Notes: generated by a model not told the origin, from the letters alone. 64,000 bases of DNA from an uncultured Alphaproteobacteria bacterium (GCA_938048755.1 CALIUG010000072.1:3258-67257), one strand, 5' to 3'. Shown: positions 1 to 62,532, counted from the first letter of the stretch. Numbers and translations: made by a program.

Positions 1-267
1 GACCAGATCCTTCCAGGAGACCGGCACGCCATCCAGCGGTCCCCGGCGCAGACCGTCCTTCTGACGCTGGCGTGCGGCCTGTGCTTCGGCCCTTGTGCGG
101 TCCTCGGCCATGCGGATGAACACCCGATGTTCAGGGTCCTCTGTTGCGATACGTTCCAGGAAAAACTCGGCCAAATCGACCGGGTCGATCACGCCCTTTG
201 CGATTCCCGCACCCAGTTCCATCGCCGTCAATTCGTGCCAGGCCTTGTCCATGGTCTTCTCCCGCAT
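1..267 (-). CDS. amidase (amidase-signature family), N-terminal portion; gene runs off the window edge
   Basis: Minus-strand translation from ATG at 265-267 reads MREKTMDKAWHELTAMELGAGIAKGVIDPVDLAEFFLERIATEDPEHRVFIRMAEDRTRAEAQAARQRQKDGLRRGPLDGVPVSWKDL. GPLDGVPxxxKD is the classic amidase N-terminal motif. The ORF is absent from the supplied track because it has no stop inside the window. Confidence 0.6.
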   Translation of the reverse strand, partial: MREKTMDKAWHELTAMELGAGIAKGVIDPVDLAEFFLERIATEDPEHRVFIRMAEDRTRAEAQAARQRQKDGLRRGPLDGVPVSWKDLV

Positions 268-299
268 GTTGTCATCTTGCTAGCACCGTGCGCGTGCTG

Positions 300-880
300 C
301 GGCCAGTGGCGGCAACCCGAACGGGTGTTTCGGGCTGATGTCGCCTCTCTCCTTTGTCGTCCTCCGGCTTGACCGGAGGACCCATGCTGTTGCGTCCCGG
401 CATGTGCCCATGGCGGTGTGTGGCGTGGTGGAAAGGTGCGTGCATGGATCCCCGATCAAGTCGGGGATGACAAGGTAGGTTGAGAGAGAAGCGCAGCACG
501 ATGGGCAGGAGCGGGCGCGACCGGGTGGTTCTGGCTGACGTCGCCTCCCCCGTTTGTCGTCGCCCGGCTTGACCGGAGGACCCGCCGCAGCGTGGCGGCC
601 TTCGCCCATGACGATAATGGGGCGGTGGAGAGGTCCGTGCATGGATCCCCGATCAGGTCGGGGATGACAAGGGAGGTTGAGAGAGAAGCGCAGCACGATG
701 GGCAAGAGCGAGAGCGACCGGGTGGTTCTGGCTGACGTCTCCTCCCCCATTTGTCGTCCTCCGGCTTGACCGGAGGACCCATGCTGTTGCGATGCGGCAT
801 GCGCCCATGACGGTGTGTGGCGTGGTGGAATGGTCCGTGCATGGATTCTCCGATCAAGTCGGAGAATGACTCAATGGATA
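300..880. repeat. tandem array of about 3 copies of a roughly 198-bp unit; each unit is a MITE-like element (about 125 bp) bounded by palindromic inverted repeats plus a roughly 70-bp spacer
   Basis: The marker catggatc recurs at 443, 640 and 840. Each unit starts with ..tttgtcgtcctccggcttgaccggaggacccatgc and ends with gcatggatccccgatcaagtcggggatgacaagg. The two ends are about 80% reverse-complementary, and each is itself a stem-loop. The spacer cagcacgatgggcaggagcgggcgcgaccgggtggttctggctgacgtcgcc also repeats. Confidence 0.85.
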
Positions 881-957: not shown

Positions 958-2178
958 ATGGCGACCATGACAGATCGTTGCGATATCGCCATCGTGGGTG
1001 GCGGCCTGAACGGACAGACGGCGGCGCTGGCGCTGGCCCGCGCCGGCTTTGACGTCGTGATCGTGGAACGGGGCGACCCCGCCGCGAAACTGACTGATGC
1101 CTTTGATGGCCGGGTTTCCTCCATCGCCTATTGCTCCAAGCTGGTGCTCGACGCCCTGGGTGCCTGGGACGGCATGGCCGAACACGGCGAACCGATTCTG
1201 GAGATCCGTGTCTCGGATCGCGATGTGCCGCTCTTCCTGCATTACGACCATGCCGATGTCGGTGACGAACCGCTGGGCTGGATTCTGGAAAACCGGTTCA
1301 TCCGACGCGCCCTGGATGCAACGCTGGCCGCCACGCCGGGCGTGCGTGTTCTTGCCCCTGCCGAGGTCACCGACATGACGCGCGATGGCAACGGCGCGAG
1401 CCTTGCCATGGCCGACGGCGCCAGCCTTGCCTGTTCCCTGGTCGTGGCCTGTGACGGCGCGATGTCACCCATGCGCACAAGTGCCGGCATCAGCCACTGG
1501 AACCACGCCTATCACCAGCAGGGCATCGTCTGCACGGTGCGTCACGAACGACCCCATCGCGGCATTGCCCATGAACGGTTCCTGCCGTCGGGCCCCTTTG
1601 CCATCCTGCCCATCCCCGGCAACCTGGCTTCTCTGGTCTGGACCGAGAAGGACGCCATCGCCAACCGGGTCATGACGCTGGAACGCGACGACATTCTTGA
1701 AGAGATTGCCTGGCGTTTCGGTGATTTTCTGGGTGAGCTCGAACTGGTCGGCCCGGTCTGGAACTATCCCCTGCGTCTGGTGCTGGCGGACCGTTACACC
1801 GACCATCGCTTCGCGCTGCTGGGGGATGCCGCCCATGCCATCCATCCCATCGCGGGCCAGGGCTTCAATCTGGGCATCCGCGATTGCGCCGTGCTGGCCG
1901 AAGTGCTGGCCGATGGCCGGCGCCTGGGGCTCGAGCCCGGCGATGCCAGCCTGCTCGCCAACTATGCCCGCTGGCGCCGTACCGACATGATGGCGCTGGT
2001 GGCCGTGACCGACAGCCTGAACCGGCTGTTCTCCAATGCCCTTCCGCCCGTCGCCCTGGCGCGTGATCTGGGCCTTGCCGCGGTTAACCGCGTGCCGCCG
2101 CTCAAGAAGCTCTTCATGCGCCACGCCATGGGTACTGTCGGCAAGCTGCCCCGCCTGATGCGCGGCGAGTCTCTTTAG
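958..2178 (+). CDS. FAD-dependent ubiquinone-biosynthesis hydroxylase, UbiH/UbiF/VisC/COQ6 family
   Basis: 406 aa. N-terminal DIAIVGGGLNGQTAALALA Rossmann dinucleotide motif. The whole length is typical of 2-octaprenyl-6-methoxyphenol hydroxylase-type flavin monooxygenases (GDAAHAIHPIAGQGFNLGIRD). Confidence 0.8.
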   Translation: MATMTDRCDIAIVGGGLNGQTAALALARAGFDVVIVERGDPAAKLTDAFDGRVSSIAYCSKLVLDALGAWDGMAEHGEPILEIRVSDRDVPLFLHYDHADVGDEPLGWILENRFIRRALDATLAATPGVRVLAPAEVTDMTRDGNGASLAMADGASLACSLVVACDGAMSPMRTSAGISHWNHAYHQQGIVCTVRHERPHRGIAHERFLPSGPFAILPIPGNLASLVWTEKDAIANRVMTLERDDILEEIAWRFGDFLGELELVGPVWNYPLRLVLADRYTDHRFALLGDAAHAIHPIAGQGFNLGIRDCAVLAEVLADGRRLGLEPGDASLLANYARWRRTDMMALVAVTDSLNRLFSNALPPVALARDLGLAAVNRVPPLKKLFMRHAMGTVGKLPRLMRGESL

Positions 2179-21640: not shown

Positions 21641-21715
21641 TGGAGCGGGCGATGAGATTCGAACTCACGACCCCAACCTTGGCAAGGTTGTGCTCTACCC
21701 CTGAGCTACGCCCGC
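21641..21715 (-). tRNA. tRNA-Gly (anticodon GCC), CCA encoded
   Basis: Reverse complement GCGGGCGTAGCTCAGGGGTAGAGCACAACCTTGCCAAGGTTGGGGTCGTGAGTTCGAATCTCATCGCCCGCTCCA. It forms a cloverleaf with anticodon loop CUUGCCAAG. Confidence 0.9.
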
Positions 21716-40487: not shown

Positions 40488-41117
40488 ATGACCCAGACAC
40501 GATGGTGGTGGGTGCGCCATGCACCGGTGACCGAAACCAACGGTCGGGTCTATGGCTCGACCGACCCCAATTGCGACACCGACAACCTTCCGGCCTATCA
40601 GGCACTCCACGCCATTCTGCCCGAGGATGCGCACTGGGTGACAAGTCACCTCAGGCGCACCAAGCAGACGGCTGCCGCCATTGCTGCGGCCGGCGGACGC
40701 AACATCGATCCGGCCGAGGAGCCGGGTCTGGGCGAACAGGATTTCGGCGACTGGCACGGCATGACCTATGACGAGATCTATGCCCTGCCGACGGCACGCC
40801 GCTTCTGGCTGGCACCCGCGACCATGCCGGCGCCCAATGGGGAGAGCTTTGCCGATCTGTGTGTGCGTGTCACCCGCGTGATTCACCGGCTGACGGCCGA
40901 ATGGGCAGGACGCGACATCGTTGCGGTTGCCCATGGCGGCACGATTCGCGCGGCACTGGCCCTGGCGCTCGATCTTGATCCCGAGACCGGCCTGCGATTC
41001 CAGACCGACAACATCTCGGTCACCCGGATCGACCATTTCGACGGTGATGACGGCCATGCCGAGAGCTGGCGCGTCACCTATATGAACCGCCAGCCGCATA
41101 TGCCGCCGAAGGAGTAG
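40488..41117 (+). CDS. cobC: alpha-ribazole-phosphate phosphatase (histidine phosphatase family)
   Basis: WWVRHAPV (RHG motif variant), and later AHGGTIRAAL. Positioned between cobS and cobU. RBS aaggaacc. Confidence 0.8.
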   Translation: MTQTRWWWVRHAPVTETNGRVYGSTDPNCDTDNLPAYQALHAILPEDAHWVTSHLRRTKQTAAAIAAAGGRNIDPAEEPGLGEQDFGDWHGMTYDEIYALPTARRFWLAPATMPAPNGESFADLCVRVTRVIHRLTAEWAGRDIVAVAHGGTIRAALALALDLDPETGLRFQTDNISVTRIDHFDGDDGHAESWRVTYMNRQPHMPPKE

Positions 41118-41124
41118 TTTCGCG

Positions 41125-41286
41125 CGTAGCGGCGCTCGCGACTCTCTGCTAAGAACGCTGGAAGTAGGAACGAGACGAGGGAAGCCGGTGTGATGCCGGT
41201 GCTGCCCCCGCAACTGTAACGGTGAGATCCGAAGCGTTGACCCACTGGCAAAGCCCCAAAAGAGGGCAAAGCCGGGAAGGGGCTTC
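41125..41286 (+). promoter_or_regulatory. cobalamin (AdoCbl) riboswitch in the leader of cobU-cobW-cobN-cobO-...
   Basis: AGGGAAGCCGGTGTGATGCCGGTGCTGCCCCCGCAACTGTAACGG is the B12-box/core region. ACCCACTGG is a variant of the GCCACTG element, and GCCGGGAAGGGGC is a variant of the GGGAAGGC element. Spacing and order are correct. cobU RBS GGAGGGAGG follows. Confidence 0.75.
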
Positions 41287-41361
41287 ATGGGATCGTCGAG
41301 CCGAAGCCAGGAAACCTCCCCCGTTCCGCCCTGGACCACGCGCGCCTCGGAGGGAGGTCGG

Positions 41362-50703: not shown

Positions 50704-51738
50704 ATGAGCAAACTCGCCGTCATGTTGTGTGGCCACGGAAGCCGCGACGAAGGTGCGATCACCGAGTTCGGTGCCATCGCCGAAACCCTCAAGGGCCGGT
50801 TCGACTGGCCCATGGAGTACGGCTTCCTGGAATTTGCCACGCCGATCATCCGTGACGGCCTCGACAAGCTGCGTGACGGTGGTGCGACACAGATCCTGGC
50901 CGTGCCAGGCATGCTGTTTGCGGCAGGCCACGTGAAGAACGACGTGCCGAGCGTTCTCAACACCTATGCCGCGCAAAACGGAGTCGAGATCAAGTTCGGC
51001 AGGGATCTGGGCATCGATACCCGCATGGTGCGCGCGGCCGGTGAACGGGTGAAGGAAGCCATGGCGGCGGCCGATGCCGAACATGGTGTGGTGCCTCCCC
51101 ACGAGACCCTGCTGGTGACCGTGGGGCGCGGTGCATCGGATCCCGACGCAAACTCCAACGTCGCCAAGGTCTCGCGCATGTTGTGGGAAGGCCTGGGCTT
51201 CGGCTGGGGCGAAACGGCCTATTCCGGTGTGACGTTCCCGCTGGTCAAGCCTGCCCTGGAGCATGTCGTCAAGCTTGGCTTCAAGCGTGTGCTGGTGTTT
51301 CCGTACTTCCTGTTCACCGGGATTCTGGTGCGCCGGATCTATGATGCTACCGACGAAGTGGCCGCACAGCATCCCGACATCCAGTTCGTCAAGGCGGGTT
51401 ACCTCAACGATCATCCTCTGGTGGTCGATACCTTTGTCGACCGGGTGCACGAGATTCTCGAAGGCACGGGAAACATGAACTGCCAGGCCTGCAAGTACCG
51501 CGACCAGGTGCTGGGTTTCGAGGCGGAAGTCGGCCTGAAGCAGGAAAGCCATCATCACCATGTCGAGGGTATTGGCACCGGTGAGGGACACAGCCACGAT
51601 CATGATCACGAGCACGCCCATGACCATGCCCACGGGCACAGCCATGATCACGGGCACGGCCGCGACCATGCCGATGGCCACGGTCATCATCCCTACCCCC
51701 ATGCCGACCATCCGCTTGGTCCCAAGACGTTGAAGTAG
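50704..51738 (+). CDS. cbiX: sirohydrochlorin cobaltochelatase, long form (CbiXL) with [4Fe-4S] MxCxxC and a His-rich C-terminal tail
   Basis: Duplicated CbiX domains (LCGHGSRDEGA, TVGRGASDPDANS), NCQACKYR cluster and a C-terminal HDHDHEHAHDHAHGHSHDHGHGRDHADGHGHH tract. Confidence 0.8.
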   Translation: MSKLAVMLCGHGSRDEGAITEFGAIAETLKGRFDWPMEYGFLEFATPIIRDGLDKLRDGGATQILAVPGMLFAAGHVKNDVPSVLNTYAAQNGVEIKFGRDLGIDTRMVRAAGERVKEAMAAADAEHGVVPPHETLLVTVGRGASDPDANSNVAKVSRMLWEGLGFGWGETAYSGVTFPLVKPALEHVVKLGFKRVLVFPYFLFTGILVRRIYDATDEVAAQHPDIQFVKAGYLNDHPLVVDTFVDRVHEILEGTGNMNCQACKYRDQVLGFEAEVGLKQESHHHHVEGIGTGEGHSHDHDHEHAHDHAHGHSHDHGHGRDHADGHGHHPYPHADHPLGPKTLK

Positions 51739-60884: not shown

Positions 60885-60907
60885 CACCCGGGAGCAAAAC
60901 AAAAGAA

Positions 60908-61116
60908 CTGTCGTCCTCCGGCTTGACCGGAGGACCCATGCACCGAACGAAGCCACACCCACGGTTCTGCGATTTGCCGCTATACAAGCCGGTCATAGAG
61001 ATCGTCCCAATCAGGATTGTTCTCTTCGACCGGCTGGTGCAGCGCCACCAAACATGACGTGGCGCTGTTGCCTGCAACACAGCATGGATCCTCCGGTCAA
61101 GCCGGAGGATGACAAG
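60908..61116. mobile_element. internally deleted, inverted copy of the GIY-YIG cassette: two 34-bp palindromic TIRs flanking only the last about 50 nt of a GIY-YIG ORF (minus strand)
   Basis: TIR ctgtcgtcctccggcttgaccggaggacccatgc at 60908-60941 and its inverse gcatggatcctccggtcaagccggaggatgacaag at 61082-61116. The internal minus-strand ...VEENNPDWDDLYDRLV* equals the C-terminus of the intact gene at 61422-61706. Confidence 0.75.
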
Positions 61117-61137
61117 TTGGGGGTGGGTCGCGGTGGC

Positions 61138-61305
61138 TCAACGCATACCTTCCTGCATCGCGGAGCCACTGTTGGTGGTCCAGGTCTGGTGGGTGGTGAA
61201 GGAACCTTCCTTGCCAGCTAGGGCTAAGACGATGGTGGCGATTTCGTCGGGCTGGGCGATACCCTGACGGAAATGATGCGGGGCCGATGCCTTAGGACAC
61301 CCTAT
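61138..61305 (-). pseudogene. 3' fragment of a second SDR gene (last about 50 codons with its own TGA stop)
   Basis: Minus-strand ...PDEIATIVLALAGKEGSFTTHQTWTTNSGSAMQEGMR* is about 70% nt-identical to the 3' end of the SDR at 61789-62532 (PDEIAAVALALAGKAGAFTTGQVWSVNGGSAMP*). Truncated at the TIR at 61311. Confidence 0.7.
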
Positions 61306-61310
61306 CAAAA

Positions 61311-61779
61311 CTGTCGTCCTCCGGCTTGACCGGAGGACCCATGCTGTATCCTCGAAGCCGTTTCACGCCACTCTGACAAGCTGGACCGGCACACCGGCAA
61401 GCGGCAGATTGTGCGTTAGCCATGGCCTACTTCGTCTACATTCTGGCCAGCCAGAAACGCGGAACACTCTATGTCGGCGTGACGAACGATATAGCCCGTC
61501 GCGCATGGGAACATCGCGAGGGAACTGTGTCGGGCTTCACCAGGCAGTATGGCGTGAAACGGCTTGTGATGGTGGAGACCTATGACGATGTGCGCGATGC
61601 GATCCAGCGCGAGAAACGCCTGAAACACTGGAACAGAGAATGGAAAATCGCACTGATCGAAGAGAACAATCCTGACTGGGATGACCTCTACGACCGTTTG
61701 GTTTAGCGCCATTGAACAAGGTGGGGTGCTGTTGCCAGCGATACAGCATGGGTCCTCCGGTCAAGCCGGAGGACGACAA
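61311..61779 (+). mobile_element. 469-bp cassette: small GIY-YIG nuclease gene bounded by 34-bp self-palindromic terminal inverted repeats (intact copy)
   Basis: TIR-L 61311-61344 (ctgtcgtcctccggcttgaccggaggacccatgc), TIR-R 61746-61779 (gcatgggtcctccggtcaagccggaggacgacaa). The same TIR recurs 7 times in the window. Confidence 0.7.
61422..61706 (+). CDS. GIY-YIG nuclease family protein (UPF0213/YhbQ-like), 94 aa
   Basis: MAYFVYILASQKRGTLYVGVTNDIARRAWEHREG: GIY...YVG motifs, and the conserved R and E of the GIY-YIG fold. Confidence 0.85.
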   Translation: MAYFVYILASQKRGTLYVGVTNDIARRAWEHREGTVSGFTRQYGVKRLVMVETYDDVRDAIQREKRLKHWNREWKIALIEENNPDWDDLYDRLV

Positions 61780-61788
61780 AGTGTGAGC

Positions 61789-62532
61789 TCACGGCATTGC
61801 CGAGCCGCCGTTGACGCTCCAGACCTGGCCGGTGGTGAAGGCACCGGCCTTGCCGGCGAGCGCCAGGGCGACGGCTGCGATTTCGTCGGGCTGGCCGACG
61901 CGGCCCAGAGGGATGTCGGTTTCGCGCGCCATGATCTCGGGCGTGATGCCGTCCAGAAGTAGGGGCGTTTCGACCGGGCCGGGGCAGACGGCGTTGACCA
62001 GAATGTCGGGGCCGAACTCCCTGGCCCAGACGCGGGTGAGGCCAAGGATGCCGGCTTTCGAGGCGCAATAGGCTGAACGTTCCTTCCAGCCGAAGAAGGC
62101 ATGGTCGGATGCAATGTTGATGACCCGTCCGCCTCGTCCGTGGGCTGTCATGGCACGGATGGCTTCGCGCCCGGTCAGAAAGACGCCGGTGAGGTTGACG
62201 CCGATCACCCGGTTCCAGTCGGCAAGCGAGGTTTCGGTGAGCAGGCCGTCATCGGCGATACCTGCGCTGGCAACGCTGAGGTCAAGGCCGCCCATCCGCG
62301 CGACAGCTTCCGCCACGCCTTCGGTCATGGCGGCTTCGGCGGTGACATCCAGCTGCAATCCGAAGGATTCGCCACCCGCCGCAGTGATGTGGTCCTGTGT
62401 GGCCGAGGTGTCGGCCTGATCGATCAGGGCGATCTGCGCACCCTCTTCAGCAAAGGCCCGGGCGATGGCCGCACCGATGCCGCTGGCCGCACCGGTGACC
62501 AGAGCCGCCTTGCCGTCGAGAAATCCGCCCAT
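61789..62532 (-). CDS. SDR-family oxidoreductase (3-oxoacyl-ACP-reductase-like)
   Basis: TGAASGIG cofactor motif, NNAG-like, and the catalytic S...YxxxK (YCASKAG). 247 aa. Confidence 0.85.
   Translation of the reverse strand: MGGFLDGKAALVTGAASGIGAAIARAFAEEGAQIALIDQADTSATQDHITAAGGESFGLQLDVTAEAAMTEGVAEAVARMGGLDLSVASAGIADDGLLTETSLADWNRVIGVNLTGVFLTGREAIRAMTAHGRGGRVINIASDHAFFGWKERSAYCASKAGILGLTRVWAREFGPDILVNAVCPGPVETPLLLDGITPEIMARETDIPLGRVGQPDEIAAVALALAGKAGAFTTGQVWSVNGGSAMP

Follow-up and report, generated by a model that had tools for sequence, protein, structure and literature searches.

The tandem array between the amidase and ubiH genes of an uncultured alphaproteobacterium most probably consists of three inverted pairs of the hairpin repeat described as the CGTC-tagged REP or SRM. 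The hairpins are putative sites of the Ssn homologue encoded at 61422-61706 of the same 64-kb window (the whole stretch of DNA analysed here), and the array grew by local tandem duplication; judged from sequence comparisons, we place the probability of this reading at about 0.8. The array and the ssn cassette together are an instance of a system that has already been described, as CGTC REPs in 2013 and as Ssn/SRM in 2025, and not a new kind of element. The initial annotation, which presented the array as MITE-like units related to a GIY-YIG cassette, missed that the elements belong to this described family.

The CGTC-tagged REP was defined by Di Nocera in 2013 as an unpaired CGTC or TGTC tag followed by an 8-9 bp stem, a 4-5 nt loop and a CCA tail. 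Such REPs predominate in Alphaproteobacteria, are mostly paired with their tags outward ('HH dimers') at distances of 20-100 bp, and form clusters in which the dimers are reiterated in tandem along with flanking DNA (PMC3733652). The SRM, in turn, is the ssDNA binding and cleavage site of the Ssn GIY-YIG nucleases (Chenal 2025, Nat Commun 16:2388; PMC11893778), and is captured by the degenerate search sequence HGTCWY N0-2 YYVSBRH N0-5 WNVSBRG N0-2 RNCYNB (PMC11893778). In N. meningitidis the SRM is the NTS, CGTCATTCCCGCGMAVGCGGGAATCYRG, which contains the classical dRS3 repeat as its core (PMC11893778), and dRS3 is the CGTC-1 family of the 2013 classification (PMC3733652).

To define the array we relied on self-comparison of the window, which returned a single strong array with a period of 197 and 2.8 copies (Tandem Repeats Finder, 83% matches, score 797; Table 1) and thereby upheld the tandem repeat first noticed at 300-880. 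Direct-repeat families gave the same spacing of 197-199 bp, and the aligned units have a mean column identity of 88%. An independent JGI assembly (contig L003) carries an array identical to that of the window. The amidase and ubiH genes are divergent and separated by a spacer of 705 bp, with the array lying upstream of both. The two hairpins of each unit are inverted relative to each other; they are stable and GC-rich stem-loops with perfect stems in all cases except L2. In the hairpin scans the left members start at 356, 556 and 753 (plus strand), and the right members span 448-471, 645-668 and 845-870 (minus strand). Read from the tag, the hairpins have the layout (T/A)GTC, a stem of 8-9 bp, the loop CTTGA (CCTGA in R2), the complementary stem and CCA. 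The head is TGTC in nine of the 10 hairpins of the window and AGTC in R3, and the tail is CCA in the nine intact hairpins and CCC in the degenerate L2. Within the array the left stems, GTCCTCCGG (9 bp), differ from the right stems, ATCCCCGA or ATTCTCCGA (8 bp), but the differences are compensatory and fall on both arms, so that each hairpin stays perfect. Thus the earlier statement that each unit end is an individual hairpin is borne out, all of them being perfect except L2 with its two stem mismatches. The accompanying statement that the two ends are mutually reverse-complementary is correct for the head, loop and tail that they have in common, but not for their stems.

Table 1. Positions of the array, the ssn cassette and the associated features in the 64-kb window
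Feature	Position	Strand	Description or basis
Amidase gene, 5' end	1..252	-	Pfam PF01425; divergent from ubiH
Tandem array	318..870	.	2.8 copies of a 197-bp unit: left flank + inverted hairpin pair + right flank
SRM / CGTC-REP L1	355..385	+	TGTC-GTCCTCCGG-CTTGA-CCGGAGGAC-CCA
SRM R1	444..472	-	TGTC-ATCCCCGA-CTTGA-TCGGGGAT-CCA; matches the published SRM search sequence
Inter-pair spacer 1	473..554	.	this locus only
SRM L2, degenerate	555..585	+	stem GTCGCCCGG / CCGGAGGAC, 2 mismatches
SRM R2	641..669	-	stem ATCCCCGA, loop CCTGA; matches the published SRM search sequence
Inter-pair spacer 2	670..751	.	94% identity to spacer 1
SRM L3	752..782	+	stem GTCCTCCGG
SRM R3	841..871	-	stem ATTCTCCGA; matches the published SRM search sequence
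UbiH/FAD-monooxygenase gene (ubiH)	958..2178	+	Pfam PF01494
E60k: SRM pair around two inverted, decayed copies of the cassette right end	60909..61114	.	blastn
SDR 3'-end pseudogene fragment	61138..61262	-	77% identity to 61794-61898
M20 peptidase gene 3'-end remnant	61250..61302	+	homology; marks the duplication junction
SRM upstream of ssn, head distal to gene	61312..61342	+	hairpin and pattern scans
ssn homologue, 94-aa single-domain GIY-YIG nuclease (predicted)	61422..61706	+	Pfam PF01541, 1.4e-15
SRM downstream of ssn, head distal to gene	61748..61778	-	hairpin and pattern scans

The intact hairpins of the window all display the tag (as AGTC in R3), the 8-9 bp stem, the 4-5 nt loop (5 nt here) and the CCA tail of the CGTC REPs. 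They likewise share with that superfamily the arrangement in heterodimeric 'HH' pairs, here with an 88-nt spacer that falls in the 20-100 bp range, and the reiteration of the dimers in tandem with their flanking DNA. They differ from it in being linked to an enzyme, whereas the 2013 work judged CGTC REPs to be without a dedicated enzyme and called grouped elements rare (PMC3733652). The published SRM pattern matches four of the 10 hairpins (R1, R2, R3 and the right hairpin of E60k), against 0.64 expected from shuffles. Five further hairpins, all intact and with the stem GTCCTCCGG, miss it at one position only, the first stem pair, which is G-C and not A/T (355-385, 752-782, 60909-60939, 61312-61342 and 61748-61778); these include both repeats that bracket ssn, and the tenth hairpin outside the pattern is the degenerate L2. 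The stem accordingly begins with GT in the L-type and both gene-flanking hairpins and with AT in the R-type. For comparison, the first and second stem positions of CGTC REPs were found to be 'almost invariably' A-T and T-A (PMC3733652), and stems starting with GT make up 5 of the 194 hairpins among the 80 homologue loci described below. The G-C-closing variant therefore escapes the published search pattern, yet it flanks an intact ssn gene that appears to be under selection. The variant may accordingly mark an Ssn with another specificity, a possibility of interest given that Ssn enzymes have been proposed as tools for work with ssDNA.

Hairpins of this type occur at only two places in the 64-kb window, namely the array and the segment 60909-61778. 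Both repeats bracketing the GIY-YIG ORF recur with 100% identity, over 36-39 nt, at the left ends of units 1 and 3, a kinship that had been correctly recognized at the outset. The dispersal of the repeat hence comprises two loci in 64 kb and perhaps one more context in a JGI contig (L002 1-260), where the place of the array beside the R3 hairpin and ubiH is taken by the 3' end of a typA/bipA-like gene. Such a junction reflects either a chimeric assembly at the repeat or a further genomic copy of the ATTCTCCGA hairpin.

The protein encoded between the two bracketing repeats shows properties of the Ssn family, which comprises single-domain GIY-YIG proteins of about 94 aa (CDD cd10448; PMC11893778). 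The PF01541 domain spans residues 3-75 of its 94 residues, and the protein is shorter than 150 aa with no extra DNA-binding domain. Y6, Y17 and E64 are invariant in an alignment of 28 sequences, and the alanine substitutions Y6A, Y17A and E64A abolish cleavage by SsnA (PMC11893778). NCBIfam contained no model specific to the 94-aa protein, and the nearest solved structures, 1ZG2 and 1YWL, are uncharacterised UPF0213 proteins. SsnA binds the NTS as ssDNA only; its cut in the bound strand lies a few nucleotides upstream of the NTS, and the reverse strand, dsDNA and RNA stay uncut. Its cleavage relies mainly on the three nucleotides before the palindrome and its binding most on the C just after it, and in vivo it restricts incoming transforming ssDNA that carries the NTS (PMC11893778). 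The ssn gene of the window is found at the same locus in a relative, from whose orthologue it differs by 5 nonsynonymous codon changes (221 sites) and 11 synonymous ones (61 sites), and these counts indicate that it is under purifying selection. The shared locus, together with a synonymous divergence of about 0.2 per site, implies that ssn has been vertically inherited. Homologues at 57-64% identity are flanked by the exact NTS consensus; for instance, at L036, which encodes a 64% identical homologue, sequences fitting the exact N. meningitidis consensus are present on both sides of the gene.

We surveyed 80 loci from named genomes that encode homologues of the window protein at 56-74% identity, drawn from Alpha- and Betaproteobacteria, Planctomycetes, Omnitrophota, Chloroflexi, Bacteroidetes, Terriglobia and others, with a detector defined by GTC, a perfect stem of 8-9 bp and a loop of 4-5 nt, the tail being left out. 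Hairpin density within 150 bp of the gene was 4.83/kb as against 0.075/kb in the far flanks, a 64-fold difference. On shuffled DNA the detector gave 5 matches in 824 kb, compared with 170 in the near and far zones of the 80 loci. At least one side of the gene carried a hairpin in 59 of the 80 loci (74%) and both sides did in 37 (46%), values close to the 71% and 42% published for SRMs beside ssn homologues (PMC11893778). The head was distal to the gene in 39 of 43 upstream and 44 of 53 downstream hairpins. The CCA tail, although not asked for by the detector, was present in 174 of 194 hairpins. The 115 gene-flanking hairpins represented 53 distinct stems: upstream and downstream stems matched in 27 of 37 loci, compared with 11% across loci, and far hairpins matched the hairpin of their own gene in 24 of 50 cases, compared with 9%. 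Further, when hairpins of the CTTGA- and CTTGT-loop classes were chosen by head, loop and tail alone, 84-100% paired at each stem position, against 54-66% with permuted arms, with 1-3 Watson-Crick pair types per position. Judged by these pairing frequencies, the stems covary across loci. The survey is an independent replication, with a purely structural detector and across many phyla, of the association between Ssn and these hairpins.

Two sets of loci show other layouts. In a marine Rhodospirillaceae MAG (L019 5827-6369, also L014-L017) an outward-tagged pair lies upstream of the gene and a lone downstream hairpin has its tag toward the gene, unlike the usual layout. The WBZN01 metagenome contigs (L100-L154) contain at least 30 distinct compact ATCCTCCGG hairpin pairs, about 52 bp from start to start. 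Most of these are nested in a longer repeated element with the inverted ends TCATTCCAATTAAA.../...TTAATTGGAATGA, found in both orientations, and other hairpin families, ATTCCGGC and ATCCCGGC, coexist in the same contigs.

Comparison of orthologous amidase-ubiH spacers upheld the suggested amplification in tandem, as relatives carry 0, 1, 2 or 3 units, counts that derive from short-read metagenome assemblies in which tandem repeats can collapse. In L157 and L158 (UbiH 87% identical) the spacer is about 100 bp long and has no hairpins. In L151, which shares its metagenome with contigs bearing a 95%-identical ssn orthologue, it holds one pair that is 100% identical to unit 3 (L3 to R3) including the interior. 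In L156 (UbiH 98% identical) there are two pairs, and three are found in the window, its source contig L001 and the independent JGI contig. The 82-bp inter-pair spacers combine copies of both flanks, that of the right flank being the more diverged; in spacer 1, the left flank of unit 1 has its homologue in the right part, and the left part shows weak homology to the right flank of unit 3. BLAST against all loci collected recovered no copies of the spacers and unit interiors outside the orthologous locus, and hence the 197-bp unit is not a dispersed element. Taken together, the series of 0, 1, 2 and 3 units and the origin of the spacers as flank copies identify local tandem duplication, as opposed to repeated insertion, as the way in which the array grew: one hairpin pair sat in the amidase-ubiH spacer, and the left flank, pair and right flank (197 bp) were then duplicated in tandem. 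The units differ from one another by 8-17%, which exceeds the divergence between strains at the same locus, and strains share an identical unit 3. Simple recent duplication by itself therefore does not account for the array, and gene conversion or homogenisation, or an older duplication followed by loss, must also have taken part. A comparison of L156 (1031-1300) with the window (290-750) additionally found the copies of the left flank to be more alike within a genome than to their orthologues, which suggests concerted evolution or independent duplications.

A second tandem duplication is apparent at the ssn locus. In the relatives whose SDR is 81-89% identical (L160-L166) the SDR gene and the M20-peptidase gene converge; their stop codons lie 4 nt apart where the SDR identity is 87-89%, and the genes are called as overlapping where it is 81%. 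Since the two genes abut there, the whole of 60885-61788 (904 bp), which separates these convergent genes in the window, is an insertion. It contains, in order, E60k, the SDR 3' fragment, the M20 3' remnant and the intact SRM-ssn-SRM cassette. This order is the one expected if some 700 bp, comprising the cassette and the ends of both genes, had been duplicated in tandem and the first copy had since decayed. E60k matches the right end of the cassette at 77-81% over 94-124 nt (blastn), including the last ~45 nt of the ssn ORF, and folds as a long hairpin with arms of about 100 bp (z = -11.5). It looks like the product of a template switch between inverted repeats. The match indicates that E60k (206 bp) is derived from the cassette, and that a non-coding hairpin pair can in this way descend from one. 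At both loci of the window, then, an SRM-bounded element has been duplicated in tandem with 40-170 bp of flank. All four hairpins of the ssn locus are kept in the relative, and the DNA between them has undergone substitutions and deletions.

The initial annotation's label of MITEs for the units, taken literally, would imply that they stem from the GIY-YIG cassette and that the GIY-YIG protein served as the transposase for their excision and reinsertion. The units do resemble MITEs in being small and non-coding and in having terminal inverted repeats in common with a gene-bearing element, those 36-39 nt of complete identity being the ends of the cassette itself. The element is also absent from the same spacer in L157/L158, E60k with its ssn coding remnants is a true deletion or rearrangement derivative, and the same hairpin recurs, in pairs, in at least 30 genomic contexts in another metagenomic organism, which implies that the repeats spread somehow. 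Moreover, the authors of the Ssn study note that NTS-ssnA-NTS resembles an IS (PMC11893778). Against this, units 1-3 show no similarity to the cassette beyond the hairpin ends and no ssn remnant, so that only these ends are common to both, and the spacers are copies of the local flank. The derivation of the units from the cassette is thus not sustained. That the tandem copies include local flank speaks for duplication and not insertion. Comparison with the empty sites of L157 and L160 yielded no convincing target-site duplication at the borders of the array or of the ssn locus, and a DDE-type transposase, as expected of MITEs, is lacking. Additionally, GIY-YIG enzymes are hydrolytic nucleases that act without a covalent intermediate, and we know of no strand-transfer activity among them. 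The characterised homologue is a site-specific ssDNA endonuclease and not a transposase (PMC11893778). As SsnA cuts only one ssDNA orientation, an inverted pair would be cut once per strand and not at both ends, and the vertical inheritance of ssn at one locus is likewise at odds with a mobile cassette. We hence abandon the label of MITE and regard transposition of this kind as unlikely. We are similarly doubtful of a bolder reading, in which ssn and its SRMs form, or formed until recently, a truly mobile or self-amplifying element that works by a mechanism of a new class and gives rise to hairpin pairs from ssn cassettes. If it were, E60k would be a fossil made of two inverted right ends with ssn codons, and nicking by Ssn just outside the hairpins would trigger template switching and local amplification.

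Another reading is a role in RNA or transcription, with the hairpins serving between the two genes as terminators or insulators, as raised initially, or as mRNA-stabilising stem-loops; the stability and GC-richness of the stem-loops agree with it. REPs of other bacteria have been put forward as mRNA stabilisers or transcription terminators (PMC3733652). The amidase and ubiH genes are, however, divergent with the array upstream of both, and a scan of the array found no T-run after any hairpin and no sigma-70-like promoter; on these grounds the terminator or insulator idea is not supported. Rfam gave no match to the array at either the gathering or the E-value thresholds, relatives do without the array, and features typical of recognition by a protein are present, namely a head and a tail that are unpaired and conserved and an orientation specific to one strand. 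SsnA, for its part, does not bind RNA (PMC11893778). The array is probably not a transcription signal, and we consider an action at the RNA level highly improbable. A less readily dismissed alternative is an array without function, produced neutrally by slipped replication or by unequal crossing-over between inverted or direct repeats, and still present only because it has yet to be deleted. The copy number is polymorphic, the L2 hairpin has already decayed, and the unit interiors drift fast, being 77-100% identical between orthologues. Conversely, nine of the 10 hairpins have retained their stems, heads and tails while the non-coding DNA nearby has gained substitutions and deletions, and the greater likeness of the flank copies within a genome than to their orthologues argues for ongoing homogenisation. 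We view a functionless array as a real but lesser possibility. The array itself may be selectively neutral, and such neutrality concerns only its benefit to the host and is compatible with the hairpins being Ssn sites.

On the present analysis a cluster of Ssn sites appears to be the best-supported functional reading of the array. The cleavage mechanism has been demonstrated for four homologues of Ssn (PMC11893778), and by extension to the window the Ssn protein would bind a hairpin with a GTC head and a C tail when the DNA is single-stranded, and would cut the bound strand a few nucleotides 5' of the head, sparing dsDNA, RNA and the opposite strand. Given the alternating hairpins, each strand of the array would offer three potential cut sites, about 197 nt apart and just outside the pairs. 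The array would then be a local hot-spot for Ssn cutting of ssDNA, the likely substrates being incoming transforming or conjugative DNA, or intermediates of replication or repair. It would also be expected to favour repeat-mediated recombination.

Among known systems, the Ssn/SRM system is matched in the 94-aa single-domain GIY-YIG protein with Y6, Y17 and E64, in the bracketing of the gene by inverted hairpins with a (C/T)GTC head and a C tail, and in the presence of further scattered and clustered repeats whose stems covary between lineages. The window departs from it in the first stem pair of the gene-flanking repeats, in a loop of 5 nt (CTTGA) in place of 4 nt, and in its host, an uncultured alphaproteobacterium. 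The neisserial dRS3 repeats and intergenic mosaic clusters are similar in forming intergenic arrays with units bounded by an SRM-type inverted repeat, but they have another stem sequence and a 4-nt loop, and their arrays interleave several unrelated repeat families. Like the REPIN/RAYT elements and BIMEs of gamma-proteobacteria, the present repeats form inverted doublets that fold into long hairpins, occur in tandem mosaic clusters, and accompany a vertically inherited, usually single-copy gene flanked by its own REPs. REPIN/RAYT elements have a GTAG tag and an HUH tyrosine transposase related to those of IS200/IS605, whereas a CGTC/TGTC tag and a GIY-YIG hydrolase are found here, which sets the present elements outside that system. 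For specialists, this is in the main one more SRM/CGTC-REP cluster beside one more Ssn homologue. What goes beyond the literature is confined to three points: the series of copy numbers and the pair of tandem duplications, both of which bear on how such repeats multiply, and the hairpin variant closed by G-C.

The relatives of the window also differ downstream of ubiH. A BrnT/BrnA toxin-antitoxin pair is located just upstream of the MFS transporter gene in L156 (3140-3653) and L159 (2777-3273), following the ASCH gene in the former and lying directly after ubiH in the latter; the window is without it, its ASCH gene (2181-2522) being followed directly by the MFS gene. Elsewhere in the window, and unrelated to the array, are a tRNA gene (21644-21715, minus strand) and a cobalamin riboswitch (41115-41337, plus strand, 78 bits). 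Finally, short tandem repeats of 18/24 nt at 51589-51661 (CACAGCCATGATCATGACCACGGG) abound in CAT/CAC codons and may encode a His-rich repeat.
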